From positions 3,201 to 67,200 of the forward strand of contig WFSR01000012.1 of the NCBI GenBank assembly GCA_015485895.1: a stretch of DNA of 64,000 nucleotides, written 5' to 3'. Position 1 is the stretch's first letter. Each line of letters begins with the position of its first letter. Below, piece by piece: positions 1 through 63,675 of this stretch. The position numbers and the translations under genes are program-made. Source of the stretch: Candidatus Microgenomates bacterium. GTDB taxonomy: Bacteria > Patescibacteriota > Microgenomatia > UBA12405 > UBA6130. The notes under the pieces are model-generated. The model made no database searches. It worked only from the letters and a program-made list of their open reading frames with translations, and was not told the origin of the DNA.

Positions 1-46
1 AGAAGAAGCATGGCATGACTCATCTTGGCTGAAAATAAAATTTTTT

Positions 47-634
47 TTGGATGACATTAATCAAGAGGAAAAAAGTAGAAAAAAAATTTCTATTTTAAGC
101 GATTTATCTTTAAGACTTGATCCAGAAAAAACAATGAGAAATTTATCAAAAAAATTTGGCTGGCTTCCATTCAACGACAGGTTAATAAAAAACTGGGAAA
201 AAGGAGTCGGAAAAAATCTTTATTCTCCACCATATAAAACCCAAGACTACAAAACTTACAGAAAAAGACTCTTTAAAAATATATGGATAAAAGAGGCTAT
301 TTGGAGCAACTCTTTTAAACCAATAAACCCAGAAAAGGATTCTCCGCGTGATTTAACTAAATTGCCAATAAATATCCGCGATTATTATGCATTAGAAATG
401 CTGCCCACTTACATCTATTTTATTTCTCGTAAAGAGAATGACTCTAAACTTGACTCTTTAGAGGAAATAAGACAAATGGCAAGAATCAATCCAATTGAAG
501 CCTATTTTAATCTCAGAAGAAGTTATCCCCAAGAAAAAAAGCTTCTAAATAAATTAGAAAAGCAAATTAAAAGACAGGCACCTTTCACTTTCTCAATAAT
601 TAAAGTTTATCTGAATAAACAATGGATCTGCTAG
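47..634 (+). CDS. hypothetical protein, first gene of the low-GC island
   Basis: 195-aa ORF with ATG at 47 in the ~33% GC region. No motif I recognise. The island may extend upstream beyond the window start. Confidence 0.35.
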   Translation: MDDINQEEKSRKKISILSDLSLRLDPEKTMRNLSKKFGWLPFNDRLIKNWEKGVGKNLYSPPYKTQDYKTYRKRLFKNIWIKEAIWSNSFKPINPEKDSPRDLTKLPINIRDYYALEMLPTYIYFISRKENDSKLDSLEEIRQMARINPIEAYFNLRRSYPQEKKLLNKLEKQIKRQAPFTFSIIKVYLNKQWIC

Positions 635-1320
635 AAATAGCTTTAAAAAGCAGAAGTTCCGATCGAATAATGACTGCAATTGAAGATAGTTTGCCAAGAG
701 ATTTTAAAGATCGAGCAGGATCAAACAGAGTGTCTATGGCCCAAGAGTTAGTTGAAAGAAAAATAGTCCCCATCGTCATCAAGCCAGAAGGTCTGCTAGC
801 AAATGGATTGGAAGTTGTAACAACCGGATTAAAAAAAAGAGGTGTAAAGATTATTTCAATAGAAATTATTGATCATCCTGATTTGAACACTTGGTTTATA
901 AGATACAGAAACGTAATTGAGCTATATTCTGAAGATTTCGAACCAATCCTCCCAGATCTTGCGAAACTAAATGGGGAAAATCCATGGGGAATAGTCACCA
1001 TAAAATGCGGTCCTGAATTAGATTTAACTAGACTAAAAAAGGAAATCATAGGAGGAAGCGGAGAAGAAGGAAAAAGCTCAATAAGGAGTAAACTTAAATC
1101 CCTGATCGCCAAGGCAGGCTTTTACAATGGAAACAATCCAGCCCTAAGAGAAACAGTCTTTCCAAAAAGAACACTACCCGAAAACCGGAGAACATTTAAT
1201 GGAGTTCATTGTCCTCGAACCACAGAAGAAGCCATAAGAGATTTAGCAATACATCTTGGCGAACCTGACTTAGACAAGTTACTAAATATAAGCACGAAGC
1301 TAACAAAATCTAGATATTAG
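622..1320 (+). CDS. nucleoside diphosphate kinase-like protein (divergent, with insertion)
   Basis: IVIKPEG...G.EVV..GLKKRGVKI resembles the NDK N-terminal I(I/V)KPDG motif. NGVHCPRTTEEAIRDLAIHL aligns to the NDK catalytic-His segment N.VHGSDS.ESA.REI. At 232 aa it is longer than a typical 140-150 aa NDK. Confidence 0.45.
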   Translation: MDLLEIALKSRSSDRIMTAIEDSLPRDFKDRAGSNRVSMAQELVERKIVPIVIKPEGLLANGLEVVTTGLKKRGVKIISIEIIDHPDLNTWFIRYRNVIELYSEDFEPILPDLAKLNGENPWGIVTIKCGPELDLTRLKKEIIGGSGEEGKSSIRSKLKSLIAKAGFYNGNNPALRETVFPKRTLPENRRTFNGVHCPRTTEEAIRDLAIHLGEPDLDKLLNISTKLTKSRY

Positions 1321-1347
1321 CCCAAATTCTTTTTATAATATTCAATC

Positions 1348-1914
1348 ATGAAAAAAATAATCTTTTGGACCAGCAACCCAAATAAATTAGAGGAGATAAG
1401 ACTTTTTCTAAAAGGAACTGACTACCAAGTAACTCAGCCAGAAAAAATAGAAGAAATAAGGGAAATTCAAGCTAATGACCCAATCGAAGTGTTTGAAGAT
1501 AAACTAACAAAGATAAGCAAGCTTGTTTCTGGACCAGTAATAGTGGACGATTTTTCTTTTTCAATTGAAAAACTTAATGGTTTTCCTAGCCCTTATGCTA
1601 AGTATGTGGTAAAAACAATCGGCATAGAAAATATATATAAATTGGCTAAGGGCGAAAAAGCAGTAATGAAGTCCTATATAGGATACTGCGACGAAAAAAA
1701 GCAATGCAGGATATTTGTAGGCAAGCTAGAAGGAAAAATTATCGACAACCCTAGAAAATTCAAGGAAATTAAAAAAAACACTCCTCTAAATAGCATTTTT
1801 ATCCCGAAGGGCGAAAAAGAAACCTTAGAAGAAATTTTTGCAAAAAATAAGAACTTTAAGAATCACCGAAAAATAGCTTTAGAAAAATTACTAAGTTATC
1901 TTTTAAATAATTAA
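1348..1914 (+). CDS. Ham1/RdgB-family non-canonical purine NTP pyrophosphatase
   Basis: N-terminus IIFWTSNPNKLEEIR matches the Ham1 A(T/S)GNxGKxxE phosphate-binding motif. The 188-aa size fits the family. Confidence 0.7.
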   Translation: MKKIIFWTSNPNKLEEIRLFLKGTDYQVTQPEKIEEIREIQANDPIEVFEDKLTKISKLVSGPVIVDDFSFSIEKLNGFPSPYAKYVVKTIGIENIYKLAKGEKAVMKSYIGYCDEKKQCRIFVGKLEGKIIDNPRKFKEIKKNTPLNSIFIPKGEKETLEEIFAKNKNFKNHRKIALEKLLSYLLNN

Positions 1915-1937
1915 TTGTTAAAATTAGTCTAAACAAA

Positions 1938-2564
1938 ATGATTACAATCAAAGCAAAAACTCCAGGTAAAGCATGGCTAAAAGCCTGCAAAACAGTTACG
2001 GAGAAAGGGAAACATATAAAGGATGACGATGTGTTGCTAAAAGAGGTTATTGATTTATTTTTAGAAATCGAGCAAGCCGCAGAAAAAGACTCAATCATAA
2101 AAAAACATGGTGACAAGAAAATAATTAAATGGATGATTGAAGAAAACTTTTACGGCTCTAAATCAGTATTAAATTGGGGTTACTGTTATGGTCTGAGATT
2201 AAGAAATTATCTTGGCATAAACCAAATTGATAAGGTTATAGAAAAACTTAATAAAAAGCCCGAGTCAAAATCAGCAACAATAGTAACAATGGACCCAAAG
2301 GTAGATTTTAGTGGCCATATGCCATGCATTGTCGCCTTAGACTTCAAAATCAGGGAAGGCAAACTTCTAGCTACCGCATTTTTTAGAAGCCAAGACGTCG
2401 GTAAAAAAATGTATGCGGATATTTTAGCCCTAGGAAAAATACAAAAGGAAGTTGCCGAAAAAACAAGAACTAAACCTGGAAAGCTTAAAATTTTCATTTC
2501 TTCAGCTTATATTTACGAAACAGAATTTAATAAAGTTAAAGAATTGCTGAAAAATGTTAACTAA
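1938..2564 (+). CDS. thymidylate synthase / dCMP-dUMP hydroxymethylase-fold enzyme (short form)
   Basis: Three TS-fold motifs are present: HMPCIVALDF matches the P-C-H catalytic-Cys region of ThyA; FRSQDVGKKMYADILAL matches QRS.D..LG.PFNIASYALL; SSAYIYE matches GDAHIY. At 208 aa it is shorter than a canonical ThyA. Confidence 0.6.
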   Translation: MITIKAKTPGKAWLKACKTVTEKGKHIKDDDVLLKEVIDLFLEIEQAAEKDSIIKKHGDKKIIKWMIEENFYGSKSVLNWGYCYGLRLRNYLGINQIDKVIEKLNKKPESKSATIVTMDPKVDFSGHMPCIVALDFKIREGKLLATAFFRSQDVGKKMYADILALGKIQKEVAEKTRTKPGKLKIFISSAYIYETEFNKVKELLKNVN

Positions 2565-3204
2565 AAACCAAAAAAAACAATTAGAAAGAATTCTCGAAAA
2601 GAGTTTTAAGGGGACTTTTGAGCTAGGCGGAGGAAAAGAGTATCGGTTCTTTCATGGAATTCAGGTAGCAAAATTTGCTCTAAAGATAGCAAAAAAAGAA
2701 AGTCTTGATCTGGATTTAGATGCTCTTTTCGTAGCCGCTCTTTTCCATGATGTTGGAAAAATCGAAGCAGTCAACGAAAAGGGAATGATTGATTATCAAT
2801 CACAAGCCAATAAAAACCATGTTGATATTGCTGCTCAGAAATTAGAATCAATAATAGGCAAAGCAATTAAAGATAAAGATCTAATCAGGAAAAGTAGTCA
2901 AATAATCTTAGAAAGCAAAGAGGAAAACCCAAAATTAATAGAGGCCAGAGTTTTAAAAGATGCTGATGAATTAGGTAATTTTGGCTACCTGCAAATCTGG
3001 CGAACCCTTACCTATGCTGCCTTAGCAAAACTAAACTTAGCAGAAGAAATAGAATATTGGAAAAAGGAAGGGGAGGGTAGTCGAAAAAAACTTTTAGAAA
3101 GGCTTCGATATTCAATCAGCAAAAAAGTTGCTAAAAAGAGATTCGAAAAAAGCAAAAAATTCTTTCAGGAACTAGAAAGAGAAGCTCGAGGAGATGATTT
3201 TTGA
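2554..3204 (+). CDS. HD-domain metal-dependent phosphohydrolase
   Basis: H...HD signature LFHDVGK preceded by a His-containing helix (FFHGIQVAKFAL). 216 aa. Confidence 0.65.
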   Translation: MLTKNQKKQLERILEKSFKGTFELGGGKEYRFFHGIQVAKFALKIAKKESLDLDLDALFVAALFHDVGKIEAVNEKGMIDYQSQANKNHVDIAAQKLESIIGKAIKDKDLIRKSSQIILESKEENPKLIEARVLKDADELGNFGYLQIWRTLTYAALAKLNLAEEIEYWKKEGEGSRKKLLERLRYSISKKVAKKRFEKSKKFFQELEREARGDDF

Positions 3205-3213
3205 ATTCGATAA

Positions 3214-4287
3214 ATGGACAAAAATTCTGGAAAGATATTGACTCCGCTAATTAATAAAGCCTTAAAACACAATCAGGAAAGGACATTTTTTTGGCCAAAT
3301 CAAAATCGTGAATGGTTAGATTTTGTTTTGAGTGTAGTAGAAAAAAGGAAAAATAAGCCAAAAAACATTAGAATATTAATAATTGGAGGTGTTTTTTATT
3401 CATGCTATATTGCCGCAAAGGGATACTACACTACTTCCGTAGAAAAAAATCCTCTTGCAAGTATTTCGCAACTATATACAGCTTGGTTAATAGCCAGCGG
3501 CTACAGCAAAAACCAAGCCATAGCTAGATCCTTTTTGCTTGATTTAGTAGGAGAAAGAACAAATCCTCATAAAAGGGAGAGAATAACTATTCCTGAAAAA
3601 AAATATCTCCGAGCTCTGAATAGGTTTAAAAAATTTCTATCCTTAAGGGACATAGAGACAGCTCAAGAAATTTTCAATAAAATGCTTGGAATTACAAAAA
3701 AGAAAGACTGTAAGTCCAAAATTTATTTAAATCTAATTAAAAAGGGTATTGGACTGTCAGGATTTAATAATGCCAGCTTTCGACTACCAAATAAAATCAT
3801 TACCAAAAACATCAAAACCTATTCAGAAAAAAAGCCAGAAAAATTTGATCTTATAATTAGTACTAATGTCATCGACTTTTTTCCTACAGTAGAAAACTTT
3901 CTCTTTACTATATTTCCTTTATTGGAAAAGAATGGTATTTTAGAAATAACAACTTACAACCAAGAATTGAGCAGGAAAATAAAAGACATTTTTCCCGAAT
4001 TGAAAATTAGCAAAAATAGAAAAAGAAGAATAGGAAAAGCGCGTTTATTAAAAAAAATCTCCGCCAATAACTACCTTGAAGTTGAAAAAGACCTTATTTT
4101 GGGAAGAAATGTCTTTCTTATCAGGAGAAAAGAAATTAAAGAGCAATTAATAGAAAAAATCCCCTATTGGGTCAGAGAGCTTTTATTAAAAAACCGCTTT
4201 CACTCAAGCTTTTCTTTATTTAGAGATCAATCTTGGTATTTCTCTATAGAAAACGGAAAATTGACTGAAGTTAAAAAGAAAAAATGA
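3214..4287 (+). CDS. putative class I SAM-dependent methyltransferase-like protein
   Basis: ILIIGGVFYSCYIA glycine-rich motif-I-like segment and DLIISTNVIDFF, LLEKNGILEI motif II/III-like segments. Weak; the family call is by pattern only. Confidence 0.3.
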   Translation: MDKNSGKILTPLINKALKHNQERTFFWPNQNREWLDFVLSVVEKRKNKPKNIRILIIGGVFYSCYIAAKGYYTTSVEKNPLASISQLYTAWLIASGYSKNQAIARSFLLDLVGERTNPHKRERITIPEKKYLRALNRFKKFLSLRDIETAQEIFNKMLGITKKKDCKSKIYLNLIKKGIGLSGFNNASFRLPNKIITKNIKTYSEKKPEKFDLIISTNVIDFFPTVENFLFTIFPLLEKNGILEITTYNQELSRKIKDIFPELKISKNRKRRIGKARLLKKISANNYLEVEKDLILGRNVFLIRRKEIKEQLIEKIPYWVRELLLKNRFHSSFSLFRDQSWYFSIENGKLTEVKKKK

Positions 4288-4853
4288 TCATAGTTCTAGA
4301 GGGCCTTCCTGGAGCCGGAAAAACAACAATAGCCAAACTTCTAAAAAGAGAACATTCTTTCGGAATGGTTGAGCAGATTATAATTGATCCCAAATCACTG
4401 AGAAAAGAGGGGGGAAAATTCAAAAATCCATACTTTGTCAATGATGAAGAAAAATGTTTTCTAGCAAAAAAATTAGCTAACAACCACAAACACGTAGTCA
4501 TGGATCGGAATTATATCTCAACTTTAGCCTTCAATTACGCAGCCAAATTTGATCCAAAAAATAATAGCTCATTCTCTATAGCAAGAAAATGGTATTCCAA
4601 AAATTATAAAAAAACTATTTTCCCTCCAGACCTCTATATTTACCTCCGGACTCCAATTCAATTTTGCTTTAGCAGAAAAAAACGCCGCGAAAATCCTGAA
4701 AATCCCTGGACGGACCCTGATCATCTCAAAAAAATGAAATACTTCTATGAGAATATATTTCCTATAATGGAACCGCAGGTGCCAAAAATAACTATTTCCG
4801 GAAAATTACCAATTAAAAATATCATTAAAAAGATAATCAGATGCTTAGAATAG
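4284..4853 (+). CDS. thymidylate-kinase-family (d)NMP kinase
   Basis: P-loop IVLEGLPGAGKTT at the N-terminus. DRNYISTLAFNYA resembles the Tmk DRY..S..AYQ motif. 4-nt overlap with the upstream gene. Confidence 0.55.
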   Translation: MIIVLEGLPGAGKTTIAKLLKREHSFGMVEQIIIDPKSLRKEGGKFKNPYFVNDEEKCFLAKKLANNHKHVVMDRNYISTLAFNYAAKFDPKNNSSFSIARKWYSKNYKKTIFPPDLYIYLRTPIQFCFSRKKRRENPENPWTDPDHLKKMKYFYENIFPIMEPQVPKITISGKLPIKNIIKKIIRCLE

Positions 4854-5962
4854 CCTACTTTCGAGACGGCCCCTTTTTGCCGCCACTAGAAGGCGGCTCA
4901 GAATCAATCCTAGGAATGATGAAAGGGATCGCTAAAAAAGCCGAAACCGAAGTATTTCTATTTCGCTGTTATCGAGGCTGGGATGATTATCGACTATATT
5001 TAAAGAAGCCTTTTAAAACAATTTTTATCAAGCCAAGCGATTTTTACACTAACTCAAGCCTCTATAAGCATCTAATCAAAAAATACAAAATAAATGTTTA
5101 CCACTTCGATAGCGCTGGGGCAATAAGCATTCAAGCTAATCTCGTCGGCAAAAATGTACTAAAAGTTTGGGAAGTACTCAATGTCAATCATACATTAATT
5201 AAGCGCACTGGAGGAAAAAGAAAAGAAATAAAAAAAGCTATTTTTTATGAATTAGAAGCCGCAAAAAAAGCTGGCTTAATCCTAGCTCGCTCGGAAAAGG
5301 ATAGAGATGATCTAATTAAAATAGGCATCGATAAGAGAAAGATTGCTCTATATCACGGATGCATTAGTCCCCAAAAATATGATTTTGTTCCTTTTAAAAA
5401 GAAAAAGGGGAATAGAATTTTGTTTCTAGGGAATATGTTTTATAAACCAAATGAAGAAGCTGTTAAAATTATTAGAAATAAAATTATTTCACCTGTTGTA
5501 GAAAAAAATCAAAAAGCAAAATTTATTTTTGTAGGCAACTACCCCAAAAACCTCTCTAAAGAGTTTAATAAATTTAAAAACGTTATTTTTACCGGCGGAA
5601 TAAAAGATATAAATTCAGAACTATCAAAAGCAAAAATTGCTCTTGCTCCTCTTAAATCCGGCTCAGGAACTAGGTTAAAAATTCTAACTTATTTAGCCGC
5701 AGGAATACCAACAATTGCTACTAATCTAGCCATAGAAGGTCTAAAAAGAGATATTAAAAAATTCCTAGTTATAGAAGATAATTTTCAAAAATATCCTCAG
5801 CTAATTACGAGGCTATTGAATTCTGGTTTTTCTGAAAAACTACTTCTCGAAGGAAGAAAGTGGGTTGAAAAGAATTATTCTTGGCAAAACGAGGCTCAAA
5901 AAATTCTAAACCACTATAAAAACTTCCTCTTGGGCCCAAATAGAGAATTAAAAATCGTATAG
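4841..5962 (+). CDS. GT-B fold glycosyltransferase (GT4-like)
   Basis: C-terminal domain ALAPLKSGSGTRLKILTYLAAGIPTIATNLAIEGL is the typical GT1/GT4 donor-binding region. It is the last gene of the low-GC island; GC jumps immediately after its stop. Confidence 0.55.
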   Translation: MLRIAYFRDGPFLPPLEGGSESILGMMKGIAKKAETEVFLFRCYRGWDDYRLYLKKPFKTIFIKPSDFYTNSSLYKHLIKKYKINVYHFDSAGAISIQANLVGKNVLKVWEVLNVNHTLIKRTGGKRKEIKKAIFYELEAAKKAGLILARSEKDRDDLIKIGIDKRKIALYHGCISPQKYDFVPFKKKKGNRILFLGNMFYKPNEEAVKIIRNKIISPVVEKNQKAKFIFVGNYPKNLSKEFNKFKNVIFTGGIKDINSELSKAKIALAPLKSGSGTRLKILTYLAAGIPTIATNLAIEGLKRDIKKFLVIEDNFQKYPQLITRLLNSGFSEKLLLEGRKWVEKNYSWQNEAQKILNHYKNFLLGPNRELKIV

Positions 5963-5971
5963 AATCAAAAT

Positions 5972-7096
5972 ATGCGGACGGGAGTAGCGGAATTTACCCT
6001 TGATTATGGCCGGTGCCCGCCGTGGCTTTTCCGGCGGATGGTGCGCTTGGGACGGGCGATTGGCATTGCTATTATCCGCGAATTTGGTCCGGAAGAATTT
6101 TTGCGCCGGCTGGCCGACCCGGTTTGGTTTCAGTCTTTAGGCTGTGTTTTGGCTTTCGATTGGAACGCTTCTGGGTTAACCACGACGACCTTAGGTGCTC
6201 TAAAAGTTGCTTTCCAAGGGCTAGAAAAGGATTTGGGGGTTTTCATTTGCGGTGGCAAAGGGAAAACTTCGCGGCGGACACCGGAAGAAATTAATAATTG
6301 GGGCTGGCAGTTGGGGTTAAATGAAAAGGTGGTCTGGCGCCTGGAATATTCTTCCCGGGCAGCGGCGAAAGTAGACAGCGCCTTAATTCAAGATGGCTTT
6401 CAAATTTACCACCATTCGTTTATTTTTACTAAAACTGGCCATTGGGCCGTGATTCAACAGGGGATGAATATCCAAAAAGGCCGGGCGCGCCGGTATCACT
6501 GGTGGGGCGATACCCAAAAGCAATTTATCGAAGAGCCGCATACCGGGATCAGTTCGCCGGTTGTTTTGTCAACGGTGCTTGATTTGACAGCAAAGAAAAG
6601 CCGCCAAAATCGGCAGGTAGGCCTTGAGGTGATTCAAAAGCCAAAAACTTTTCTCCGTGATTTAAAGGTGTTAACGGTAAAGTCGGGGGATTGGCAGTTT
6701 CGGGTTATGTCTCTGCCGGGGATCGAGTTTCATCATCATCCGGTAGAAAATGAATTCTTGTCGCCTCAATTGCGCCGGGCAGTAAATCAGGCTTTAATTC
6801 GCCAACCGACTACTTTTGAAAAGTTGTTGATGACCCCTGGGGTAGGGCCAAGAACGATTCGGGCTATTTCCCTGGTAGCCGAAATTATTTATGGGGCTAA
6901 ACCTTCTTACGAGGATCCGGCGCGCTATACTTTTGCTCATGGCGGCAAAGACGGGACGCCTTACTTTGTGGACCGCCAACAATATGATCGCACTTTAGCT
7001 ATTATTGAAAAAGCTTTACGCCAGAGCCACTGGCTACTTTTTCGGGAGCGCAGTCAGGCCTTACAACGCGCCACCCAAGTCTTTCATACTTCATGA
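5972..7096 (+). CDS. DUF763-family protein
   Basis: N-terminus MRTGVAEFTLDYGRCPPWLFRRMVRLGRAI matches the conserved start I recall for DUF763 proteins (mostly archaeal). High GC (~57%), distinct from both the island and the backbone. Confidence 0.5.
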   Translation: MRTGVAEFTLDYGRCPPWLFRRMVRLGRAIGIAIIREFGPEEFLRRLADPVWFQSLGCVLAFDWNASGLTTTTLGALKVAFQGLEKDLGVFICGGKGKTSRRTPEEINNWGWQLGLNEKVVWRLEYSSRAAAKVDSALIQDGFQIYHHSFIFTKTGHWAVIQQGMNIQKGRARRYHWWGDTQKQFIEEPHTGISSPVVLSTVLDLTAKKSRQNRQVGLEVIQKPKTFLRDLKVLTVKSGDWQFRVMSLPGIEFHHHPVENEFLSPQLRRAVNQALIRQPTTFEKLLMTPGVGPRTIRAISLVAEIIYGAKPSYEDPARYTFAHGGKDGTPYFVDRQQYDRTLAIIEKALRQSHWLLFRERSQALQRATQVFHTS

Positions 7097-7623: not shown

Positions 7624-9032
7624 AATCACTTTGTCAATTGCCATTATTGGAATTACGGAAAAAGCTTGGGGCGAAAAAGCTAAGCCCCCAAGAGCTTTGG
7701 GCTGAGTGCCAAAAAGCGATTGCGGAGAAGGATGGAAAAATTCATGCCTTTCTGACCCATATTTTACAGTTACAATTACCAGCGGAATGGCAAAAAACCG
7801 AATTAAAGGGCATCCCCTTCGCAGTTAAAGATAATCTTTCGACAGCTAATTTACTAACGACGGCCGGGTCGCAAATTTTGAAAGGCTACCGGCCGCCTTA
7901 TACGGCTACGGTAGTAGAACGGCTGCAAAAAGCCGGCGGTGTGATTTTGGGGAAAACTAATTGTGACGCTTTTGCCTTTGGGGCGTCGGGGGAAAACTCT
8001 GGTTACGGGCCGACCCATAACCCCTATGATTTAAGCCGCGTGCCAGGGGGATCGTCAAGCGGATCGGCGGCGGCCGTAGCGGCGGGGATGGCAGTTTTTG
8101 CCCTGGGAACAGATACCGGCGGTTCGATCCGCCAGCCAGCGGCTTTTTGTGGGGTAGTCGGATTAAAGCCAACTTACGGCCGCTGTTCGCGTTGGGGGTT
8201 GATTGCGATGGGGTCGTCTTTTGATGTGCCTGGGCCGTTGACCCGAACCGTAGCCGATGCCGCTTTTCTTTTAGGACTAATGGCCGGTTACGACAAACGT
8301 GATGCCACTAGCAGCCAAACACCGGTTGAAAATTATTTGGCAGCTTTGAATGGCAGTTCGGTGCGAGGCTTGCGGGTTGGTTTGGTAGAAGAATTTTTCC
8401 AACATGGTTTGCAGCCGGAAATTAAGAAAGCCGTCATGCGGGTAGCGGATGTTTTAGCCAACAACGGCGCCAAACTGGTTAGAGTACATTTACCCCATCT
8501 TGAGGAGGCGTTGGCGGTTTATTATGTATTGGTACCGGCAGAAATTAGTTCCAACATGGCCCGTTATGATGGTATTCGTTTTGGCTGGCAATCAAAACGG
8601 GGCAAAACAGCGGCGGCAGTAACTGCTTTTAGCCGTGCGGAGGGATTTGAAATGGAGGTAAAGCGACGCATCTTAACCGGCACCTATGTGCTTTCTGCTG
8701 GATACTATGATGCTTACTATCTTCAAGCTTCTCGAGTGCGGACTTTAGTTATCCGGGATTTCCAGGAACTTTTTAATAAGGTTGATGTTCTCTTGGGACC
8801 AACAACGCCGACAACTGCTTTTAAATTAGGTGAAAAAACTGCCGATCCAGTGGCAATGTATCTTTCCGACATTTTTACTGTGCCCGCTAACGTGGCTGGC
8901 TTGCCAGCCATTTCCTTGCCCTTTGGCCGTGACCAAAAAAATTTGCCAATTGGCGTTCAACTTATTGGTAATCGGTTTCAGGAAGGGGAAATTTTACGGG
9001 TTGCCCATTTTTTGGAGAATTATGCTTGCTGA
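7620..9032 (+). CDS. gatA: Asp/Glu-tRNA amidotransferase subunit A (amidase family)
   Basis: Amidase signature GGSSSGSAAAVAAG and a Ser-cisSer-Lys region. 470 aa. Confidence 0.9.
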   Translation: MKSLCQLPLLELRKKLGAKKLSPQELWAECQKAIAEKDGKIHAFLTHILQLQLPAEWQKTELKGIPFAVKDNLSTANLLTTAGSQILKGYRPPYTATVVERLQKAGGVILGKTNCDAFAFGASGENSGYGPTHNPYDLSRVPGGSSSGSAAAVAAGMAVFALGTDTGGSIRQPAAFCGVVGLKPTYGRCSRWGLIAMGSSFDVPGPLTRTVADAAFLLGLMAGYDKRDATSSQTPVENYLAALNGSSVRGLRVGLVEEFFQHGLQPEIKKAVMRVADVLANNGAKLVRVHLPHLEEALAVYYVLVPAEISSNMARYDGIRFGWQSKRGKTAAAVTAFSRAEGFEMEVKRRILTGTYVLSAGYYDAYYLQASRVRTLVIRDFQELFNKVDVLLGPTTPTTAFKLGEKTADPVAMYLSDIFTVPANVAGLPAISLPFGRDQKNLPIGVQLIGNRFQEGEILRVAHFLENYAC

Positions 9033-15065: not shown

Positions 15066-15149
15066 AGTGGGACCAATAACTTGAAAGTGAAAAGTTTGAG
15101 TGAAAAGTGAAAAAGAAGTCTAAGCTAAAAATGGAGCTAGGAACTAGGT

Positions 15150-15341
15150 CAAACAAAATCCTAAATCCTAATGACCCAAATCCTAAACAATAACCAAATT
15201 ACCAGATGATTAAATGACCAAAACAAAAGAAGGATGACAAAGATGTTTAAAACATTTGAATTTTGGTCATTTGGTATTGTTTAGAATTTAGAATTTAGGA
15301 TTTAGGTAATTAGGTATTGCCCCGACGAATGTCGGGGCAGA
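15150..15341. repeat. copy A of the long-palindrome intergenic repeat family (core only, plus GC hairpin)
   Basis: The left arm caaacaaaatcctaaatcctaatgacccaaatcctaaac...aaatgaccaaaacaaaag mirrors the right arm cttttggtcattt...tttaggatttagg. A GC hairpin gccccgacgaatgtcggggc lies at the right end. About 85-90% identical to copy B at 19851-20086 and copy C at 30049-30283. Confidence 0.8.
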
Positions 15342-15381
15342 GGTGATTTGATTATTTTTCTTTAGATGCTAAAATACAGGC

Positions 15382-16060: not shown

Positions 16061-16306
16061 CTGTGTGTGTTGTTGGAGAATGCCAATGTTGGAAGCAGCT
16101 CATGAAGTAAAAAGTGGCTAGTTGAAAGAGAGGAGGAAAATAAACTAGCGATACTTGCTCCGACAAATATGACAAAAGTAACGATGGGTCATTTTTGATT
16201 TACTAATTATTCTAACATAAGGGGTGTTTTTAAAGAAACAAATGGTTATATTAGATTGTATTAATCTATAAAAAAGAAAAGTTATATAATATTTTAATTT
16301 AGAAAA

Positions 16307-16879
16307 ATGCACATGATCAGTCGCGCAAATATTATAATATTTAATGCAGTAAACCATTTTGCAGGAAACAATATTTTTGTAGATAAATTGGGAACACTTA
16401 TCGCACAATATCTGACAATAGTGTTTATATTATTCCTGATTTATTTGTGGTTTAACAAAAATAAAAAATTTGCTTTATACTCTGGATATTCGGCAATACT
16501 AGGGATTTTATTGAATTTCTTAATTACTTCGTTTTATTTCCACCCCAGGCCTTTTATGGATAAGATAGGCACTCTTTTGATTAAACATAAACCAGAAACG
16601 TCATTTCCCTCAGACCATACAACTTTCATGCTATCTATTGCTTTCATGCTCTTGTATTTTAAAAAAACTAGAAAAATAGGCATAGTTCTTTCCATGTTGG
16701 GAATTTTAGGTGGGATCGCAAGGATATTCTGCGGGCTTCATTACCCATTTGATATTCTAGGTTCAAGTCTTGTAGCTTTGGTTTCTTCTTTTATTATTTT
16801 TACCTTTAAAGATAAACTACGGAGATTTAATAATTTAGTTATAAATTTATACTCTAGGATTATAAAAAATGAAAACTAA
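16307..16879 (+). CDS. PAP2-family lipid phosphatase
   Basis: PAP2 motifs SFPSDHT and GLHYPFDILGS (the SGH and SR..H..D signatures) with multiple TM helices. First gene of the second low-GC island. Confidence 0.65.
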   Translation: MHMISRANIIIFNAVNHFAGNNIFVDKLGTLIAQYLTIVFILFLIYLWFNKNKKFALYSGYSAILGILLNFLITSFYFHPRPFMDKIGTLLIKHKPETSFPSDHTTFMLSIAFMLLYFKKTRKIGIVLSMLGILGGIARIFCGLHYPFDILGSSLVALVSSFIIFTFKDKLRRFNNLVINLYSRIIKNEN

Positions 16880-17891
16880 AATCTTTCACAAATATGTAGT
16901 TACACTCTTATTCTCGATTTTATTATTTGCAACTGGAATTAAAATACATTCAGCCTTAACTGCTCCCCAAGTCTCAGATTGGAATTATCACCAACTCCAA
17001 AAAATAGATCATTCTAAAAGGAATTTCTCATTTGCCGTTTTTGGCGATAATAAAAACTCTGTAAAAACATTTGAAAATCTTATATCAAAACTGAACAATG
17101 ATGATGTTCTCTTTGCTATTGATGATGGAGATCTGGTTTGGGATGGAGAGAGGGAAAAATTTAGATTTTTTCTAAATCAGGTTAAGGGTCTTAATAAACC
17201 ACTATTGACTGTTTTTGGCAATCATGAAGCAAAGGGAAACGGAAGAGATGCCTATTACAATTTATTTGGTCAATTTTATTATTCCTATTTCATAGGGAAT
17301 AGTTACTTTATTGTTTTAGACGATTCAAATGAAAAGAATCTTGATGATGCGCAATTTGCTTGGCTAAAAAATGAGCTTAAAAAGAGTCAAAAGTATAAAT
17401 ATCGTTTCGTCTTTATGCATGTTCCCCTCTATGATCCTCAAAATAACAGTACAACAATTCTTGCTCATGCATTAAAGGATAAAATATTTGCTAAAAAACT
17501 GAACGATCTTTTCGATGAAAACAAGGTAACCATGTTGTTTTGTTCGCATATTCATGGTTATTTCCGAGGAAAATGGGGAAAGACTCCGTACATAATTACG
17601 GGTGGCGGTGGCGCGGAGCTAATGGGAACCGACCCAAAACATTATTTTTATCATTATATTAAAGTAAATGTTAATGACAACTCTGTGCATTACGATGTTG
17701 TCAAACTAAAAAGTCCTGATTTTGAGTTATTGGATAGATGGACTCATGATGCTTGGATATACATTTATGCTTTTTTTGCAGTCCATTTTATTGATGCATT
17801 GTTGGTGATAACGCTAATTTATCTCAGTGTGTATATTATTTTCATAAAGAAAAAGTGGCTTGTTTTTAATCTTAAAAGAGATAAAAGGTGA
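16869..17891 (+). CDS. calcineurin-like metallophosphoesterase with C-terminal TM anchor
   Basis: Metallophosphoesterase motifs FAVFGDNKN (GD), DDGDLVWDG (GD-x-V) and FGNHE (GNHE). N-terminal signal/TM segment and a C-terminal hydrophobic tail. Confidence 0.65.
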   Translation: MKTKIFHKYVVTLLFSILLFATGIKIHSALTAPQVSDWNYHQLQKIDHSKRNFSFAVFGDNKNSVKTFENLISKLNNDDVLFAIDDGDLVWDGEREKFRFFLNQVKGLNKPLLTVFGNHEAKGNGRDAYYNLFGQFYYSYFIGNSYFIVLDDSNEKNLDDAQFAWLKNELKKSQKYKYRFVFMHVPLYDPQNNSTTILAHALKDKIFAKKLNDLFDENKVTMLFCSHIHGYFRGKWGKTPYIITGGGGAELMGTDPKHYFYHYIKVNVNDNSVHYDVVKLKSPDFELLDRWTHDAWIYIYAFFAVHFIDALLVITLIYLSVYIIFIKKKWLVFNLKRDKR

Positions 17892-18472
17892 TTAATATCT
17901 TAGCATTTATAACAAGTTTTATTAAAATTTCCAAATACTTTGGTGTTTTTATAGGCACTTTTATTGAAGGACCTACGGTAGGAATGTTAACGGGATCTTT
18001 AGCTAGATTGGGTTATCTAAATATTTACTTAGGTTATTTGGTTTATGTTATAGGGGATTTTACTGCCGATTGTTTATACTATGCAATTGGCTATCATGGT
18101 GGGACAGGCTTGTTAAAAAAACTTACTTTTTCATCAAAAACTTTAGCAAAAGTAAAAAAGAGCATGATCTTCTTTAATAATCATTCAAATAAAATAATCT
18201 TCTTTGGAAAACTGACACATTTCCTCGGATTGCCCATCTTGATAGGTGCCGGCTTAGCTCATTATTCTTGGAGGAAGTTCTTGGTTTTGGATTTAATCGC
18301 TACCTTAATAAAATCTGCTGTAATTATATCAATAGGCTTCTATTTAACATCTTTTTGGGTAGGGATAGACAATGCGATAAACTATGTTGGATTAACCATT
18401 ACCTTTTTGGCCACAATCCTTTTAGTTTATTTTTTAATTAAATTAAGTAACAAAAAGAGAAAGTTACCATGA
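17888..18472 (+). CDS. DedA/VTT-domain membrane protein
   Basis: GVFIGTFIEGPTV...G......GD resembles the DedA re-entrant-loop motif. About 5 TM helices, 194 aa. Confidence 0.5.
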   Translation: MINILAFITSFIKISKYFGVFIGTFIEGPTVGMLTGSLARLGYLNIYLGYLVYVIGDFTADCLYYAIGYHGGTGLLKKLTFSSKTLAKVKKSMIFFNNHSNKIIFFGKLTHFLGLPILIGAGLAHYSWRKFLVLDLIATLIKSAVIISIGFYLTSFWVGIDNAINYVGLTITFLATILLVYFLIKLSNKKRKLP

Positions 18473-19647
18473 AAAAAATTAAAGTATTAATAGCTAGCGA
18501 AACTTATCCACCAGATGTCAATGGCGCTGCAAGATTTACAGAAAATTTAGCTAAAGGCTTGGTATCAAGAGGACATAGCGTTGTGGTTATTGCTCCAGGA
18601 ACAAGATTTAGAGATGAGACAAGCAAGGAAAATATCAATCTTAAGGTATTTAGAATTGCATCAATTTCATTAAAACCTATACATCCCTATTTCAGAGCTG
18701 TTTTTCCAGAGGGTTTATATGGGAAAATTAAAAAAATTATAAAAGATTTTAATCCGGATATTATTCATATTCAGAATCATTTTCTTCTGGGGAGAACCTG
18801 CTTGAAAATAGCCAGAGAAAATGAAATACCTATAATAGGGACGAACCATTTTATGCCAGATAACTTATTAGAATATATACCCAAAATAGCCCATCCTTAC
18901 ATATCAAAGTATATGTGGAGTGATTTTATAAAAGTCTATAGTCAGCTAGATTATGTTACTGTTCCTTCTTATACCGCAGCAAGTATGCTAAAAAGATTAG
19001 GATTAAAAAATCAAGTCAAAGTGATTTCCAATGGGATTGATTTAAAGAAATTTAAGAATGTTAGGGTGAGTAATCGTGTCTACGTTAAATTCAAAATAAG
19101 GAAAGATTTATTTACTTTCATTTTTGTTGGCCGACTTGAGAAAGATAAAAACATTGATTTGGTCCTTGAAGCATCAAAACTGGCTATCAAAAAGAAGCCT
19201 TTTCAGGTTATTATTGTGGGCAAAGGGGCGGATGGGGAAAAACTGCAAAGATTATCAAGAGAATTAGGTTTGGGCAGAGAAATAATTTTTACCGGAGAAG
19301 TAAATAATAGCGAGTTAAATCAATTGCTTAGTTTAGCTCATGCATATATTGCCTCCGGTTCTGCCGAACTTCAGGGGATAGCAGTTATGGAAGCTATGGC
19401 TCATAAACTACCAATCTTAGCTCTTAACGCCGTTGCCTTACCTGAATTGGTTAAAGATGGAGTAAATGGCTTTCTCTTCAAGTTAGATAGCAATGATTTA
19501 GCTAAGAAAATGCTTAAGTTATTATCTCTTGACTCACAAAAATTGAAATTAATGGGCAAAAACAGTTTTGGAATTATTAAGCTACATAGTCAAGAAGAAA
19601 CATTAAAGAAGTTTGAAGATCTTTATAAAAAGGTAATAGGGAGCTAA
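18469..19647 (+). CDS. GT4-family glycosyltransferase
   Basis: EAMAHKLPILALNAVALPELVKDGVNGFLF is the GT4 EX7E region. The N-terminus has the typical GT4 Rossmann start IASETYPPDVNGAARF. Confidence 0.75.
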   Translation: MKKIKVLIASETYPPDVNGAARFTENLAKGLVSRGHSVVVIAPGTRFRDETSKENINLKVFRIASISLKPIHPYFRAVFPEGLYGKIKKIIKDFNPDIIHIQNHFLLGRTCLKIARENEIPIIGTNHFMPDNLLEYIPKIAHPYISKYMWSDFIKVYSQLDYVTVPSYTAASMLKRLGLKNQVKVISNGIDLKKFKNVRVSNRVYVKFKIRKDLFTFIFVGRLEKDKNIDLVLEASKLAIKKKPFQVIIVGKGADGEKLQRLSRELGLGREIIFTGEVNNSELNQLLSLAHAYIASGSAELQGIAVMEAMAHKLPILALNAVALPELVKDGVNGFLFKLDSNDLAKKMLKLLSLDSQKLKLMGKNSFGIIKLHSQEETLKKFEDLYKKVIGS

Positions 19648-19648
19648 C

Positions 19649-20086
19649 TGTTGAGGATCAAATAAACGTTCACACCTTCTGTTGAGTTATCAACACCTTG
19701 TCATCCCGCCCTTTCGTGAGAAAGAGCGGGATCTTCAGGGAGTGTGCCATCAATAATGGTGGTACGCCACCCAGCTGAAGATGAGCCCCCAAAGCTCCGA
19801 CGTGCGTCGGGGCGGGGCGGGCAAGTTCAACATGACGAGATATAAATTAAAAGCACCAAATCCCAAGCACCAATTTCCAAACAAATCCTAAATCCTAATG
19901 ACCCAAATCCTAAACCCCGACGTTCATCGGGGCAGGCAATAACCAAATTACCAAACGATTAAATGACCAAAACAAAAGAAAGATGATAAAGATGTTTTGA
20001 ACATTTGGATTTTGGTCATTTGAACATTATTTAGGATTTAGGATTTTGGTATTGTTTGTAATTTGGTGCTTGGAATTTGGAATTTG
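19649..20086. repeat. copy B of the composite repeat: 5' structured module (19649-19850) plus long imperfect palindrome (19851-20086)
   Basis: The 5' module shares gttgaggatcaaat.aac..tcac...tatcaacac...gtcatcc...ggatct.cag.ga.tgtgc.a.caataat.gtg.tacg.cac...gctgaagatg...atgacgaga.ataaa..aaagcaccaaa with copy C. Palindrome arms run aaagcaccaaat..caagcaccaa...aatcctaaatcctaatgacccaaatcctaaa || tttaggatttaggatt..ttggtgcttggaatttgg, centred near atgttttgaacat. Confidence 0.85.
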
Positions 20087-20097
20087 TTTTTTCTGGG

Positions 20098-20169
20098 TGC
20101 CGCCAGTGGGAATCGAACCCGCCTTTTCACCTTGAAAGGGTGATGTCCTAGCCGATAGACGATGGCGGC
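20098..20169 (-). tRNA. tRNA-Glu (anticodon TTC)
   Basis: Reverse complement gccgcca tc gtctatcggctaggac a tcacc cTTTCAAa ggtga ... gcgggttcgattcccac tggcggc a. Anticodon loop cuUUCaa. Glu-like D-arm. There is one A.C mismatch in the T-stem. Confidence 0.7.
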
Positions 20170-29618: not shown

Positions 29619-29876
29619 ATGCCACCACTTGATTTAAATGACGCTCTAGCGATGGGCGACAAAGAAAAAAATTTGGCCCGGGCTCGGCAATCACTGATCG
29701 AAGAGCTAGACGCGATTAATCTTTATGAAGAACGGATTCAGGCCACTCAAGATGAAGAATTGAAAAAAGTGCTAGCTCACAACCGAGATGAAGAAAAAGA
29801 ACACGCTGCAATGCTTATTGACTATTTACGCCGCCACGATCCTGTTTTTAAGCGGATGTTTACAGAGCACGATTAA
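29619..29876 (+). CDS. small ferritin-like (ExxH half-site) protein
   Basis: 85 aa, predicted helical. EELDAINLYEERI...DEEKEHAAMLIDYL contains an E...ExxH pattern like ferritin-like/rubrerythrin half sites. Last gene before repeat copy C. Confidence 0.3.
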   Translation: MPPLDLNDALAMGDKEKNLARARQSLIEELDAINLYEERIQATQDEELKKVLAHNRDEEKEHAAMLIDYLRRHDPVFKRMFTEHD

Positions 29877-29892
29877 TAAGAATAGCGGGTAA

Positions 29893-30283
29893 GTGTTGAG
29901 GATCAAATGAACACTCACGCCCTCTACCAGCAGCTATCAACACTTCGTCATCCTGAACTTGGTTCAGGATCTCCAGAGAATGTGCTACCAATAATAGTGA
30001 TACGACACTCGGCTGAAGATGCTGAGCTAAACTCAGTATGACGAGAATAAAAGCACCAAATTGCAAACAAATTCTAAATCCTAATGACCCAAATCCTAAA
30101 CAAATCCAAAATTCAAATGATCAAATGACCAAAACAAAAGAGAAAGAATAAAGAAAAAAAGAAAGAAGAAAAAGAAATGTTTTGAACATTTGGATTTTGG
30201 CCATTTGGTATTGTTTAGGATTTAGAATTTAGGTAATTAGGATTTATTTGGTTATTGGAATTTGGTGCTTGGAATTTAATTTG
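29893..30283. repeat. copy C of the composite repeat: 5' module (29893-30048) plus long palindrome (30049-30283)
   Basis: Same architecture as copy B, between the ferritin-like gene and mraY. The central region carries an A/G-rich expansion (agagaaagaataaagaaaaaaagaaagaagaaaaag). Confidence 0.85.
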
Positions 30284-58652: not shown

Positions 58653-58660
58653 AACTACGG

Positions 58661-58734
58661 TGTCCCCGGGGGGATTCGGACCCTCGACCTTCCCGTTAGA
58701 AGCGGGACGCTCTTTCCGACTGAGCTACGGGGAC
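58661..58734 (-). tRNA. tRNA-Arg (anticodon TCT)
   Basis: Reverse complement gtccccg ta gctcagtcggaaagagc g tcccg cTTCTAAc ggga aggtc gagggtccgaatccccc cggggac a. Anticodon loop cuUCUaa. Confidence 0.8.
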
Positions 58735-58739
58735 TTGGG

Positions 58740-58813
58740 GGTGGCTGGAGGGAATCGAACCCTCAACCCTCCGCTCCACAGGCGGATGCTCTGCCAATTG
58801 AGCTACAGCCACC
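58740..58813 (-). tRNA. tRNA-His (anticodon GTG)
   Basis: Reverse complement g gtggctg ta gctcaattggcagagc a tccgc cTGTGGAg cgga gg gttgagggttcgattccctc cagccac c. It has the extra 5' G(-1) and C73 characteristic of tRNA-His. Confidence 0.8.
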
Positions 58814-58817
58814 ATGG

Positions 58818-58890
58818 TCGGGGGTAGCAGACTCGAACTGCCAACCTCACGGTCCCAAACCGTGCGCGCTGCCAATTGCGCCAACCCCCG
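58818..58890 (-). tRNA. tRNA-Pro (anticodon TGG)
   Basis: Reverse complement cgggggt t ggcgcaattggcagcgc g cacgg tTTGGGAc cgtg aggtt ggcagttcgagtctgct acccccg a. Anticodon loop uuUGGga. Confidence 0.8.
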
Positions 58891-58891
58891 G

Positions 58892-58975
58892 TGCCGCGGG
58901 AGGGAATCGAACCCTCACGTCCCGAAGGACACGAGATTTTAAGTCTCGCCTGTCTACCAATTCCAGCACCGCGGC
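58892..58975 (-). tRNA. tRNA-Leu (anticodon TAA), type II with long variable arm
   Basis: Reverse complement gccgcgg tgctggaattggtagacag gcgaga cTTAAAAt ctcgt gtccttcgggac gtgagggttcgattccctc ccgcggc a. Anticodon loop cuUAAaa. Confidence 0.8.
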
Positions 58976-61994: not shown

Positions 61995-63289
<1,295 letters not shown>

Positions 63290-63291
63290 TG

Positions 63292-63365
63292 GCCAGGGTA
63301 GCCAAGGTGGTCACGGCACGGGTCTGAAAAACCTGGGATCTCGGTTCGACTCCGAGCCCTGGCAC
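63292..63365 (+). tRNA. tRNA-Phe (anticodon GAA)
   Basis: gccaggg ta gccaaggtggtcacggc a cgggt cTGAAAAa cctg ggatc tcggttcgactccga gccctggc a. Anticodon loop cuGAAaa. Confidence 0.7.
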
Positions 63366-63369
63366 CGAA

Positions 63370-63440
63370 GCGGGATTAGTTGAGTGGCTCAACACCACCC
63401 TTCCAAGGTGGAAACACGGGTTCAAATCCCGTATCCCGCT
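63370..63440 (+). tRNA. tRNA-Gly (anticodon TCC)
   Basis: gcgggat ta gttgagtggctcaac a ccacc cTTCCAAg gtgg aaac acgggttcaaatcccgt atcccgc t. Anticodon loop cuUCCaa. Confidence 0.8.
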
Positions 63441-63446
63441 CCTAAT

Positions 63447-63519
63447 GCGACGGTAGTTCAGCTGGTAGAACGTCTCGTTGCCAACGAGAAGGTCGGGGGT
63501 TCGAGTCCCCTCCGTCGCT
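63447..63519 (+). tRNA. tRNA-Gly (anticodon GCC)
   Basis: gcgacgg ta gttcagctggtagaac g tctcg tTGCCAAc gaga aggtc gggggttcgagtcccct ccgtcgc t. Anticodon loop uuGCCaa. Confidence 0.8.
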
Positions 63520-63523
63520 CCGA

Positions 63524-63594
63524 TCGGGGATCGTCTAACGGTAGGACAGTGGCCTTTGGAGCCACGAATCGTGGTTCGAATCCACGTCCCCGAA
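63524..63594 (+). tRNA. tRNA-Gln (anticodon TTG)
   Basis: tcgggga tc gtctaacggtaggac a gtggc cTTTGGAg ccac gaat cgtggttcgaatccacg tccccga a. Anticodon loop cuUUGga. Confidence 0.75.
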
Positions 63595-63602
63595 CCCAAT
63601 TG

Positions 63603-63675
63603 GCGCTCGTAGCTCAATTGGCAGAGCACCCGCCTCTTAAGCGGATGGTTGGGGGTTCGATTCCCTCCGGGCGCA
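63603..63675 (+). tRNA. tRNA-Lys (anticodon CTT)
   Basis: gcgctcg ta gctcaattggcagagc a cccgc cTCTTAAg cgga tggtt gggggttcgattccctc cgggcgc a. Anticodon loop cuCUUaa. Confidence 0.8.

Follow-up and report, generated by a model that had tools for sequence, protein, structure and literature searches.

Three intergenic gaps in a 64,000-nucleotide stretch from an uncultured member of the Shapirobacteria (Patescibacteria), contig WFSR01000012.1, hold copies of a hairpin-forming repeat. We refer to the whole stretch as the window and to the copies as A (~19645–20089), B (~29890–30283), and C (~15084–15341), with spans taken from direct reading and repeat detection. The three spacers are repeat insertions, neither novel RNA genes nor regulatory leaders. 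The family is lineage-restricted and was found only between genes or in rRNA; its presence differs among relatives, its members are nested with other repeats, and its arms are homologous to inverted arms that flank a protein gene in other Patescibacteria. The explanation that we consider likely, with some reserve, is that the three loci are insertions of lineage-specific, non-coding, hairpin-forming miniature elements. They would be derivatives, lacking an open reading frame (ORF) and resembling miniature inverted-repeat transposable elements (MITEs), of a four-helix-bundle gene cassette of the type known from rRNA intervening sequences (IVSs).

Three Window Copies of a Hairpin-Forming Repeat

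An initial annotation of the window, made without database searches, had placed three related elements at these sites, and repeat detection bears this out: a 25-mer from the left arm occurs exactly three times in the window (0 expected), and the 15-mer TGTTGAGGATCAAAT of the 5′ module exactly twice, at copy A and at 29894. The term “near-identical” that had been applied to the copies is too strong, as A and B agree at 86% of aligned columns and at 62% when insertions and deletions (indels) are counted (78% for their 5′ modules alone). For copy C, which had been given as 15150–15341, the end stands, but the start lies further left, at ~15084, and takes in a purine-rich heptamer module. The neighboring genes are as first described. 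Copy C is flanked by dnaE and rplS; copy A by a family 4 glycosyltransferase (GT4) gene and a minus-strand tRNA-Glu gene, with mraZ beyond; and copy B by a gene for an encapsulated ferritin-like (EncFtn-like) protein and mraY, within the division and cell wall (dcw) cluster.

The worry that the copies might be assembly artefacts can be set aside, because A and B recur in independent assemblies. Two further assemblies, each from another sample (L052, L053), contain copy A without any change. For copy B, L053 agrees throughout and L052 shows five differences, all of them in the spacer, the sole part that varies between assemblies. Upstream of copy A, bases 1–83 of L052 differ from window 19508–19590 (the 3′ end of the GT4 gene) at 12 of 83 positions, followed by no difference over the next ~700 bases, copy A included; this mismatch block may mark a recombination breakpoint or the end of a contig of mixed strains.

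Common to all three copies is an AT-rich imperfect palindrome of ~165–245 bp. Its arms are arrays of degenerate heptamers according to Tandem Repeats Finder (TRF), AAATCCT on the left and TTTAGGA, TTTAGAA, or TTTGGAA on the right; they are up to 50 nt long and 78–86% complementary, and the palindromes contain no ORFs. The polarity of the apex is fixed, from the left arm through an A/G-rich spacer and ATGTTTTGAACATTTG to the right arm, and the center of symmetry is the A/G-rich spacer just 5′ of ATGTTTTGAACAT, not ATGTTTTGAACAT itself as had been proposed. When folded, each copy is far more stable than shuffled sequence (z-scores of −9.4 for A, −6.5 for B, and −6.9 for C, where the palindrome reaches −63.8 kcal/mol). 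In copies A and B the palindrome is preceded by a local hairpin, P1, and by M, a GC-rich cluster of three hairpins bounded by GTCAT...ATGAC.

Homologous Arms Around Four-Helix-Bundle Genes

The link to gene-bearing cassettes came from a metagenome scan with a 22-mer of the left arm, which matched three loci. At L042, the same arms enclose a gene matching both PF05635 (23S_rRNA_IVP, E = 1.7e-10) and TIGR02436 (four helix bundle protein, E = 3.4e-17). L040 holds a 140-bp palindrome with no ORF at the homologous site, its flanking proteins sharing 50% and 56% identity with their L042 counterparts. When the L042 product was used as a protein query, 7,983 proteins matched it at E ≤ 1e-10; they are ~70% identical, many labelled Patescibacteria and most on short contigs. 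Five further four-helix-bundle loci (L043, L044, L046, L048, and L049), from different assemblies and lineages, were picked by protein similarity only, and each of them has an A/C-rich heptamer arm on the left that is matched by its complement on the right. Inverted arms homologous to the window palindromes therefore flank four-helix-bundle genes (PF05635/TIGR02436, S23p/Avd-like) at six of the six Patescibacteria loci examined. A longer element with matching termini, which the initial annotation had suggested looking for as a full-length insertion sequence (IS), does exist; what it encodes is a PF05635 four-helix-bundle protein and not a transposase. Proteins of this family resemble Avd, the accessory protein of diversity-generating retroelements (DGRs) (PMC10053308).

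The four-helix-bundle ORF begins inside the arm: its start codon (..CCTAATGACCCAAATCC..) is part of the 22-mer conserved in the window. We aligned the window palindromes to the cassette arms in a 27-kb database. Copy B matches the arm of the L046 cassette at 89.6% over 67 nt (E = 6e-21) and copy C at 87% over 69 nt (E = 7e-19), while copy A matches cassette arms with E-values down to 1e-10. Because these alignments take in the start codon of the ORF and reach up to and across its stop codon, they suggest that the A/G-rich spacer may be a remnant of the ORF’s 3′ end.

Short ORF-less palindromes of the family also occur in other metagenomic Patescibacteria (L040 and L041, Ga0209542; L046 393–534). 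The L040 and L041 copies agree at their right ends as far as the start codon of the gene downstream (..GGATTTAATCAACAYTTATGGC), so the element may supply the 5′ leader of the next gene.

Census in a Sister Genome

We searched one genome from each of 185,579 species for exact matches to the 22-mer. Only one genome was hit, the Candidatus Shapirobacteria metagenome-assembled genome (MAG) T11_metabat1_scaf2bin.010 (JALWDZ01), which represents a sister species of the window organism (~75–80% nucleotide identity in shared genes, 87% in RsmH). The sister MAG contains at least 33 copies (33 matches to the 22-mer) on 21 contigs totalling ~0.6 Mb; they are present on nearly all contigs and in both orientations. 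No copy in either the sister MAG or the window overlaps a long ORF. The genes on the two sides form 18 tandem, 3 convergent, and 5 divergent pairs, and one copy is in 23S rRNA. Viral contigs gave 0 matches to the pattern of the 5′ module.

Orthologous sites were anchored on RsmH homologues. The sister MAG has no element at site A, and its tRNA-Glu comes directly after an unrelated gene. Its site B is filled by P1 and the palindrome without M, P1 being followed directly by ..AACGAGAATAAAA.., and the core of this palindrome has the opposite orientation to that in the window. Site C is likewise filled; a second multi-copy element with its own inverted ends is also in the spacer and breaks contigs. 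In relatives at 53–56% RsmH identity, the gaps are 27 bp (dnaE–rplS) and 14 bp (murD–mraY), with no hairpin and no EncFtn gene. The comparison of orthologous loci that had been envisaged for these elements thus yields presence/absence differences, at site A between the two species and at the other two junctions against the more distant relatives.

A multi-copy element of the sister MAG (L029 start, L030 start, L023 end, L033 1–126, L017 end) has imperfect inverted ends, G..GTACCCCAT..ATAAT..TTTACAAA..TTAAC. It carries its own −10-like box and ribosome-binding site, and its gene, which begins MVRKYKRLPIEVKQKILEE, may be IS30-like. In at least three palindromes it is inserted in the A/G-rich spacer, and the contigs end there.

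Insertions in rRNA

The 23S–5S rRNA operon of the sister MAG (L007) has 3,501 nt over 2,513 model positions, and its 23S rRNA contains ~990 nt of extra sequence (L007 1–3682, L008 ~7700–8000). A 367-nt insertion consisting of the palindrome and M lies at the tip of a 23S helix in the L1-stalk region, at large-subunit (LSU) model position ~2170 (L007). A variant of S1, one of the M hairpins, CCCGCCCTTTC-GCAA-GAAAGGGCGGG, is found at several further 23S positions together with more AT-rich arms. A hairpin loop of the 5S rRNA also contains 40 nt of inserted sequence, capped by a GCAA-loop hairpin whose sequence is different. As members of the family are inside rRNA, they are certainly transcribed in at least those copies, and they are tolerated at helix tips.

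Nested Components of the Sites

Taken together, the sites are a nest of at least four components (the palindrome, M, GC-rich hairpins similar to repetitive extragenic palindromic [REP] sequences, and the local hairpin P1) and not the single composite element that had been assumed. This division rests on the alignment of the window copies and on comparison with the sister genome. Feature coordinates are listed in Table 1.

Table 1. Components of the three window copies and the adjoining tRNA gene (window coordinates).
Copy	Feature	Position	Strand	Evidence or remark
C	Purine-rich heptamer module (AAAGTGA, GGAGCTA/GGAACTA words)	15084..15150	+	TRF period 7 at 15084–15113
C	Palindrome	15153..15316	+	Inverted pairs 85–100% complementary
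C	Left-arm 22-mer TCCTAATGACCCAAATCCTAAA	15166–15187	+	
C	A/G-rich spacer, then ATGTTTAAAACAT at 15243; right arm ends ~15314	~15224–15242	+	
C	REP-like GC mini-hairpin GCCCCGACGAATGTCGGGGC	15319..15338	+	9-bp stem in fold
A	P1 hairpin (TGTTGA...TCAACA)	19649..19695	+	Two bases past GT4 stop codon
A	M cluster, closing stem CTTGTCAT/ATGACGAG	19697..19839	+	From fold
A	M hairpin S1, CCCGCCCTTTC-GUGA-GAAAGAGCGGG	19705–19730	+	
A	M hairpins S2 (CTTCAG...CTGAAG) and S3	S3 bears GC mini-hairpin 19795–19812	+	
A	Palindrome, outer arms AAGCACCAAAT/ATTTGGTGCTT	19844..20089	+	Inverted pairs up to 43 nt at 86% complementarity
A	Left-arm GC hairpin insertion, 22 nt, CCCGACGTTCATCGGGGCAGGC	19916–19937	+	Insertion by alignment with B and C
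A	Spacer, then ATGTTTTGAACAT at 19992–20004	~19975–19991	+	
	tRNA-Glu(UUC)	20096..20169	−	ARAGORN and Rfam; neighbor of copy A, outside the element; 3′ end abuts the element
B	P1 hairpin (GTGTTGA...TCAACAC)	29893..29943	+	17 nt past EncFtn stop codon
B	M cluster, closing stem TTCGTCAT/ATGACGAG; S1 CCTGAAC-UUGG-GUUCAGG	29944..30046	+	Consensus fold
B	Palindrome	30048..30283	+	Arms 30051–30100 and 30221–30270 (50 nt, 78% complementary)
B	Long A/G-rich spacer, then ATGTTTTGAACAT at 30177	30137–30176	+	

The consensus fold of M from copies A and B has 34 pairs, 3 of them compensatory. Hairpin S1 is present at 11 places in the sister MAG besides the window copy (17 strand-wise pattern matches in all), some inside 23S rRNA. 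M-type clusters of that genome sit inside the palindrome spacer in either orientation. Its GC hairpins are nested in each other, as in CCTGCCCCGAC[TCCGCCAGCCGGCGGA]CGTCGGGGCAGG, and further outer layers consist of heptamer modules (AGTGAAA, GGAACTA, CAGAACT, AAGCACC, CAAACAA). Period 7 is the commonest tandem-repeat period in the sister-genome loci (211 arrays; periods 6 and 8 have 143 and 72). The purine-rich module of copy C has no complementary partner on the right side, and the same module precedes the palindrome, in the same order, in many sister-genome copies (including L002, L006, L011, L013, L023, and L025).

P1 was found only at site B, in the window and the sister MAG, and at site A; it is tied to the 3′ end of the EncFtn gene. 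In the sister MAG it reads ATATTGA...TCAATAT, the stem being kept through two paired changes. This distribution, together with similarity between A and B that continues for ~18 nt into the end of the GT4 gene, marks copy A as a block duplicate of site B (P1, M, and palindrome). P1 and L042 have GTTGAGGAT in common, which raised the idea that P1 is a relic of the ORF; the translation is mismatched, and we judged the match to be chance.

The REP-like 18-nt hairpin pattern CCCCGAnnnnnnTCGGGG occurs three times in the window (0.12 expected). Two of these GC hairpins are in copy A, at 19795–19812 in the 5′ module and at 19915–19932 in the left arm; they have no partner in the right arm and are plain insertions in the alignment with copy B. 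The third, in copy C (15320–15337), lies outside the right arm. The symmetric placement of GC hairpins described in the initial annotation is therefore not borne out. Their stem, CCCCGAC/GTCGGGG, is the same as that of the native 3′-half hairpin of the sister-MAG 5S rRNA (CCCCGACGCCATGTCGGGG, L007 3643–3661), a match that could be chance or a hint at the source of the hairpins.

Interpretation and Alternatives

The MITE-like character first proposed fits these results: the elements are multi-copy, non-coding, and confined to intergenic DNA and rRNA, with at least 33 copies in the sister genome, variable presence, and gene-bearing relatives with matching inverted termini. In the history that we favor, the parent would be a cassette widespread in Patescibacteria, with long inverted arms of degenerate heptamers (AAATCCT...) around a PF05635/TIGR02436 gene. 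The ORF would have been lost from the window copies, leaving the arms, the former start codon (..CCTAATGACCCAAATCC.., in the 22-mer), and the final few bases surrounding the stop codon (the spacer and ATGTTTTG...). The M cluster and REP-like hairpins of 18–28 nt would have accumulated in or beside the palindromes, and copy A came from segmental duplication of the site-B block. The elements would behave as selfish or neutral DNA that spreads as units. A transcript within an operon or an rRNA precursor would fold into a self-contained stem of ~100 bp, which may be cut or excised by RNase III by analogy with the classical IVSs of 23S rRNA. Such a stem would explain why the elements survive only between genes or at rRNA helix tips, and why they can take up extra cargo in the loop.

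Several points weigh against derivation from a mobile cassette. No transposase, recombinase, or reverse transcriptase is next to any copy: Pfam searches of the ORFs adjoining half-copies gave a DUF4434 protein or nothing, and all-vs-all BLAST of 240 kb of loci revealed dispersed repeats >500 bp only as overlapping or orthologous loci, plus a single weak match within locus L027. A tblastn search of the window and of 224 kb from the sister MAG found no four-helix-bundle gene, so that a resident parent would be hypothetical. Nor was there any target-site duplication or consistent direct repeat at the arm ends, with flanks taken from the outermost RNAfold pairs, whose boundaries are unreliable; with outer boundaries this fuzzy, no duplication can be defined. 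The L046 cassette has CAAAACATG and CAAAAACATG on its two sides, and the other cassettes have no such pair. Two of the three sites (B and C) are filled in both species and the three assemblies of the window population show no presence/absence polymorphism, which gives no support to current mobility. Copy A itself came from block duplication and not from clean transposition of a palindrome. Folding energies show no consistent strand preference and thus lend no support to a role at the RNA level. Among the ten window ORFs scanned (199–278 aa) there is no RNase III gene. Finally, that the ORF was lost rather than gained is a direction we infer.

The hairpins could instead be functional cis-acting RNAs under selection, serving as terminators or attenuators, operon punctuation, RNase processing sites, or mRNA stabilizers. 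We regard this as unlikely. The stability of the copies relative to shuffled sequence is very strong, but sense and antisense strands fold with no consistent bias, and on the sense strand the elements contain no intrinsic terminator, defined as a short GC-rich stem-loop with a U tract directly after it; the number of such sites in the region as a whole is that of shuffled sequence. A species whose flanking genes are only ~75–80% identical has two of the three sites filled at the corresponding operon junctions, and this retention is what keeps the reading in play; in more distant relatives, however, the same junctions are 14–27 bp long and have no hairpin. Selection on structure would fit the paired changes in the P1 stem, the extra insertions in the loop with the stem intact, and the constancy of the elements across three assemblies (five spacer differences of copy B in L052 aside). 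It would be harder to reconcile with copies between divergent gene pairs, with a core that is inverted between orthologous site-B copies, and with arms that elsewhere flank a protein gene and also occur in rRNA. The attenuator or terminator suggested at the outset finds no support, given the missing GC stem and U tract, the divergent gene pairs, the inverted core, and the short gaps of the relatives.

RNA family searches gave no match to the elements even at permissive thresholds. With Rfam 15, the whole window yielded nothing but tRNAs at gathering thresholds. At E-values up to 5 (window 14.9–30.6 kb) the matches were tRNAs and the antisense-tRNA artefact Plastid-ycf2, and six sister-MAG loci with M modules gave only tRNAs. 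We rejected the sub-threshold Plastid-ycf2 matches (window 20097–20169, plus strand; L030 5353–5426, minus strand) as they are antisense to tRNA genes.

It is also rather improbable, in our assessment, that the copies are not mobile at all and were spread or homogenized by segmental duplication, recombination, or gene conversion between heptamer tracts, with palindromes growing by slippage or template switching. Copy A is a case in point, being a block duplicate of site B that includes P1 and extends ~18 nt into the GT4 end. The heptamer arms are slippage-prone and have many small indels, the inverted core at site B fits recombination between arms, and neither a target-site duplication nor a transposase was found. 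Such processes do not readily account for at least 33 dispersed copies with the exact 22-mer in ~0.6 Mb, in both orientations and also in rRNA genes. Moreover, the same arms in distant Patescibacteria surround a highly conserved gene (~70% amino-acid identity; 7,983 proteins at E ≤ 1e-10), which points to horizontal spread of a discrete unit.

A more far-reaching idea, which we put forward only as a speculation with low odds, is that the heptamer-armed cassette is a new kind of mobile element. Its sole gene would encode an Avd-like nucleic-acid-binding protein and its hairpin arms would act in cis; gene-less copies would be moved in trans, possibly through hairpin RNA released by RNase III and a DGR-type reverse transcriptase. 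Avd proteins work with DGR-type reverse transcriptases. If true, this would answer how rRNA IVSs arise and spread, a question open since ~1990.

The initial annotation had also proposed palindrome-associated transposable elements (PATEs) derived from an IS200/IS605-like parent. Mobilization of PATEs or of REP doublets forming hairpins (REPINs), by an IS200/IS605 TnpA or a REP-associated tyrosine transposase (RAYT) acting on single-stranded hairpins, is in our judgment very improbable. The small GC hairpins (CCCCGACG..CGTCGGGG, CCTGCC..GGCAGG, TCCGCCAGCTGGCGGA) are REP-like in size and composition, nest in each other and in other elements, and M hairpins are near both ends. But we saw no Y1 transposase (TnpA) or TnpB near the copies and no omega-RNA, IS605-orfB, or other Rfam match. 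The termini are long inverted arms and not subterminal hairpins, and the gene-bearing relatives encode the PF05635 four-helix-bundle protein. Nor is the unpaired GTAG or CGTC tag of REPs (PMC3733652) evident, CGTC being inside the stem.

Four other candidates were dropped: a retron msr-msd region (no reverse transcriptase nearby), DGR template and variable repeats (copies intergenic, no reverse transcriptase), the 5′ end of a group II intron (GUGYG not conserved), and a CRISPR array (no spaced repeats), which the initial annotation had rightly excluded.

Relation to Known Elements

IVSs, S23p ORFs, MITEs, and REPs are known kinds of element. The closest resemblance is to the IVSs of 23S rRNA in Leptospira, Coxiella burnetii, Brucella, and Xanthomonas, and to the ORF-less ones of Salmonella, Campylobacter, and Rhizobiales, in that complementary termini form a long stem. 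IVSs are described as stems of terminal inverted repeats, optionally with an S23p ORF in the loop, that are excised by RNase III and whose origin is unexplained; an old hypothesis holds that the ORF once served mobility (PMC4990558). In both families an optional PF05635 ORF sits in the loop and ORF-less versions exist, both have heptamer repeats beside the ORF (PMC4990558), and both insert at rRNA helix tips, as the 367-nt insertion in the sister-MAG 23S rRNA does here. Unlike IVSs, the three window copies are intergenic, inside operons, and not in 23S rRNA. The present family also reaches dozens of copies per ~0.6-Mb genome, and its stems are much longer (~100 bp), AT-rich, and made of heptamer arrays. 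Classical IVS sites are helices 9, 25, and 45 of 23S rRNA, and the sister-MAG site (LSU ~2170) is none of these.

Bacterial MITEs that act as RNA hairpins include the Correia elements of Neisseria, enterobacterial ERIC/IRU, pneumococcal RUP and BOX, and cyanobacterial Nezha. The window elements are likewise small (<~500 bp), non-coding, multi-copy, and intergenic, with terminal inverted repeats that give a single hairpin if co-transcribed; their modular, nested make-up recalls BOX, and longer relatives have the same termini. They differ in that these longer relatives encode a PF05635 protein and no transposase, that no TA or other target-site duplication was found, and that the arms are simple-sequence heptamer arrays and not unique terminal repeats.

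REP sequences, bacterial interspersed mosaic elements (BIMEs), and REPINs are short GC-rich palindromes of intergenic DNA, often downstream of genes, that form mosaic arrays with other motifs (PMC3733652, PMC2817692). Scattered GC-rich palindromes combined with other motifs are seen here too, a likeness limited to the 18–28-nt GC hairpins, to be set against REP palindromes of 20–40 bp. These hairpins are nested in a much larger AT-rich palindrome and show no unpaired GTAG/CGTC tag, and no RAYT gene was seen near the copies. The short tandemly repeated repetitive (STRR) sequences of cyanobacteria resemble the family as intergenic tandem heptanucleotide arrays, whereas here such arrays are the inverted arms of a defined cassette. 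An STRR unit, TTGGTCA, is also present in the inner arms, which is a lead to a possible relationship. Insertions in rRNA genes are common in the Candidate Phyla Radiation (CPR), and a survey of them makes no mention of palindromic or hairpin insertions (PMC11270868).

The element itself is a fairly ordinary genomic parasite, and the finding is not surprising in principle. In the searchable literature, though, we found no description of such elements in CPR/Patescibacteria, of the PF05635 genes of Patescibacteria in heptamer-armed cassettes, or of gene-less cassette derivatives multiplied through the intergenic DNA and rRNA of a ~0.6–0.7-Mb genome. More than 30 years after IVSs and S23p ORFs became known, how they arose and how they spread is still unexplained (PMC4990558). 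In this lineage the cassette occurs in several states, namely with the ORF, without it at a homologous site, as dozens of intergenic copies, and in 23S rRNA. With these states side by side, it is a natural system in which to test cassette mobility, the role of the four-helix-bundle protein, and RNase III-based tolerance, and its usefulness lies in making the question of IVS origin and spread testable. It also shows that a “streamlined” Patescibacteria genome of ~0.6–0.7 Mb can bear a dense load of nested hairpin repeats, which break assemblies and inflate rRNA genes.

Neighboring Genes and Other Window Features

Copy A is exactly at the junction between tRNA-Glu and a low-GC island (window 16300–19650; GC 0.31–0.35 vs. 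~0.44) that encodes a PAP2 protein, a metallophosphoesterase, a VTT-domain protein, and the GT4 glycosyltransferase. This four-gene island is situated between the UPF0102 gene and tRNA-Glu; it is absent from the sister MAG, where a single unrelated 152-aa gene is found instead. The EncFtn-like gene next to copy B (window 29619–29876, 85 aa) has a Mur ligase gene and mraY as its neighbors in the dcw cluster. The sister MAG keeps it, and a relative at 56% RsmH identity has no such gene and only 14 bp between the two neighbors.

Just past copy C, upstream of rplS, is a promoter-like site with a TG-extended −10 (TTGATT-16-TAAAAT, window 15348–15375), and the sequence around it is conserved in the sister MAG (L033 ~320–356). 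A second low-GC stretch occupies window 1–6000 (GC ~0.33, A-over-T skew 0.19–0.24) with eight co-directional ORFs. The 64-kb window contains 15 tRNA genes, including tight clusters of four (58659–58975) and six (63215–63676).

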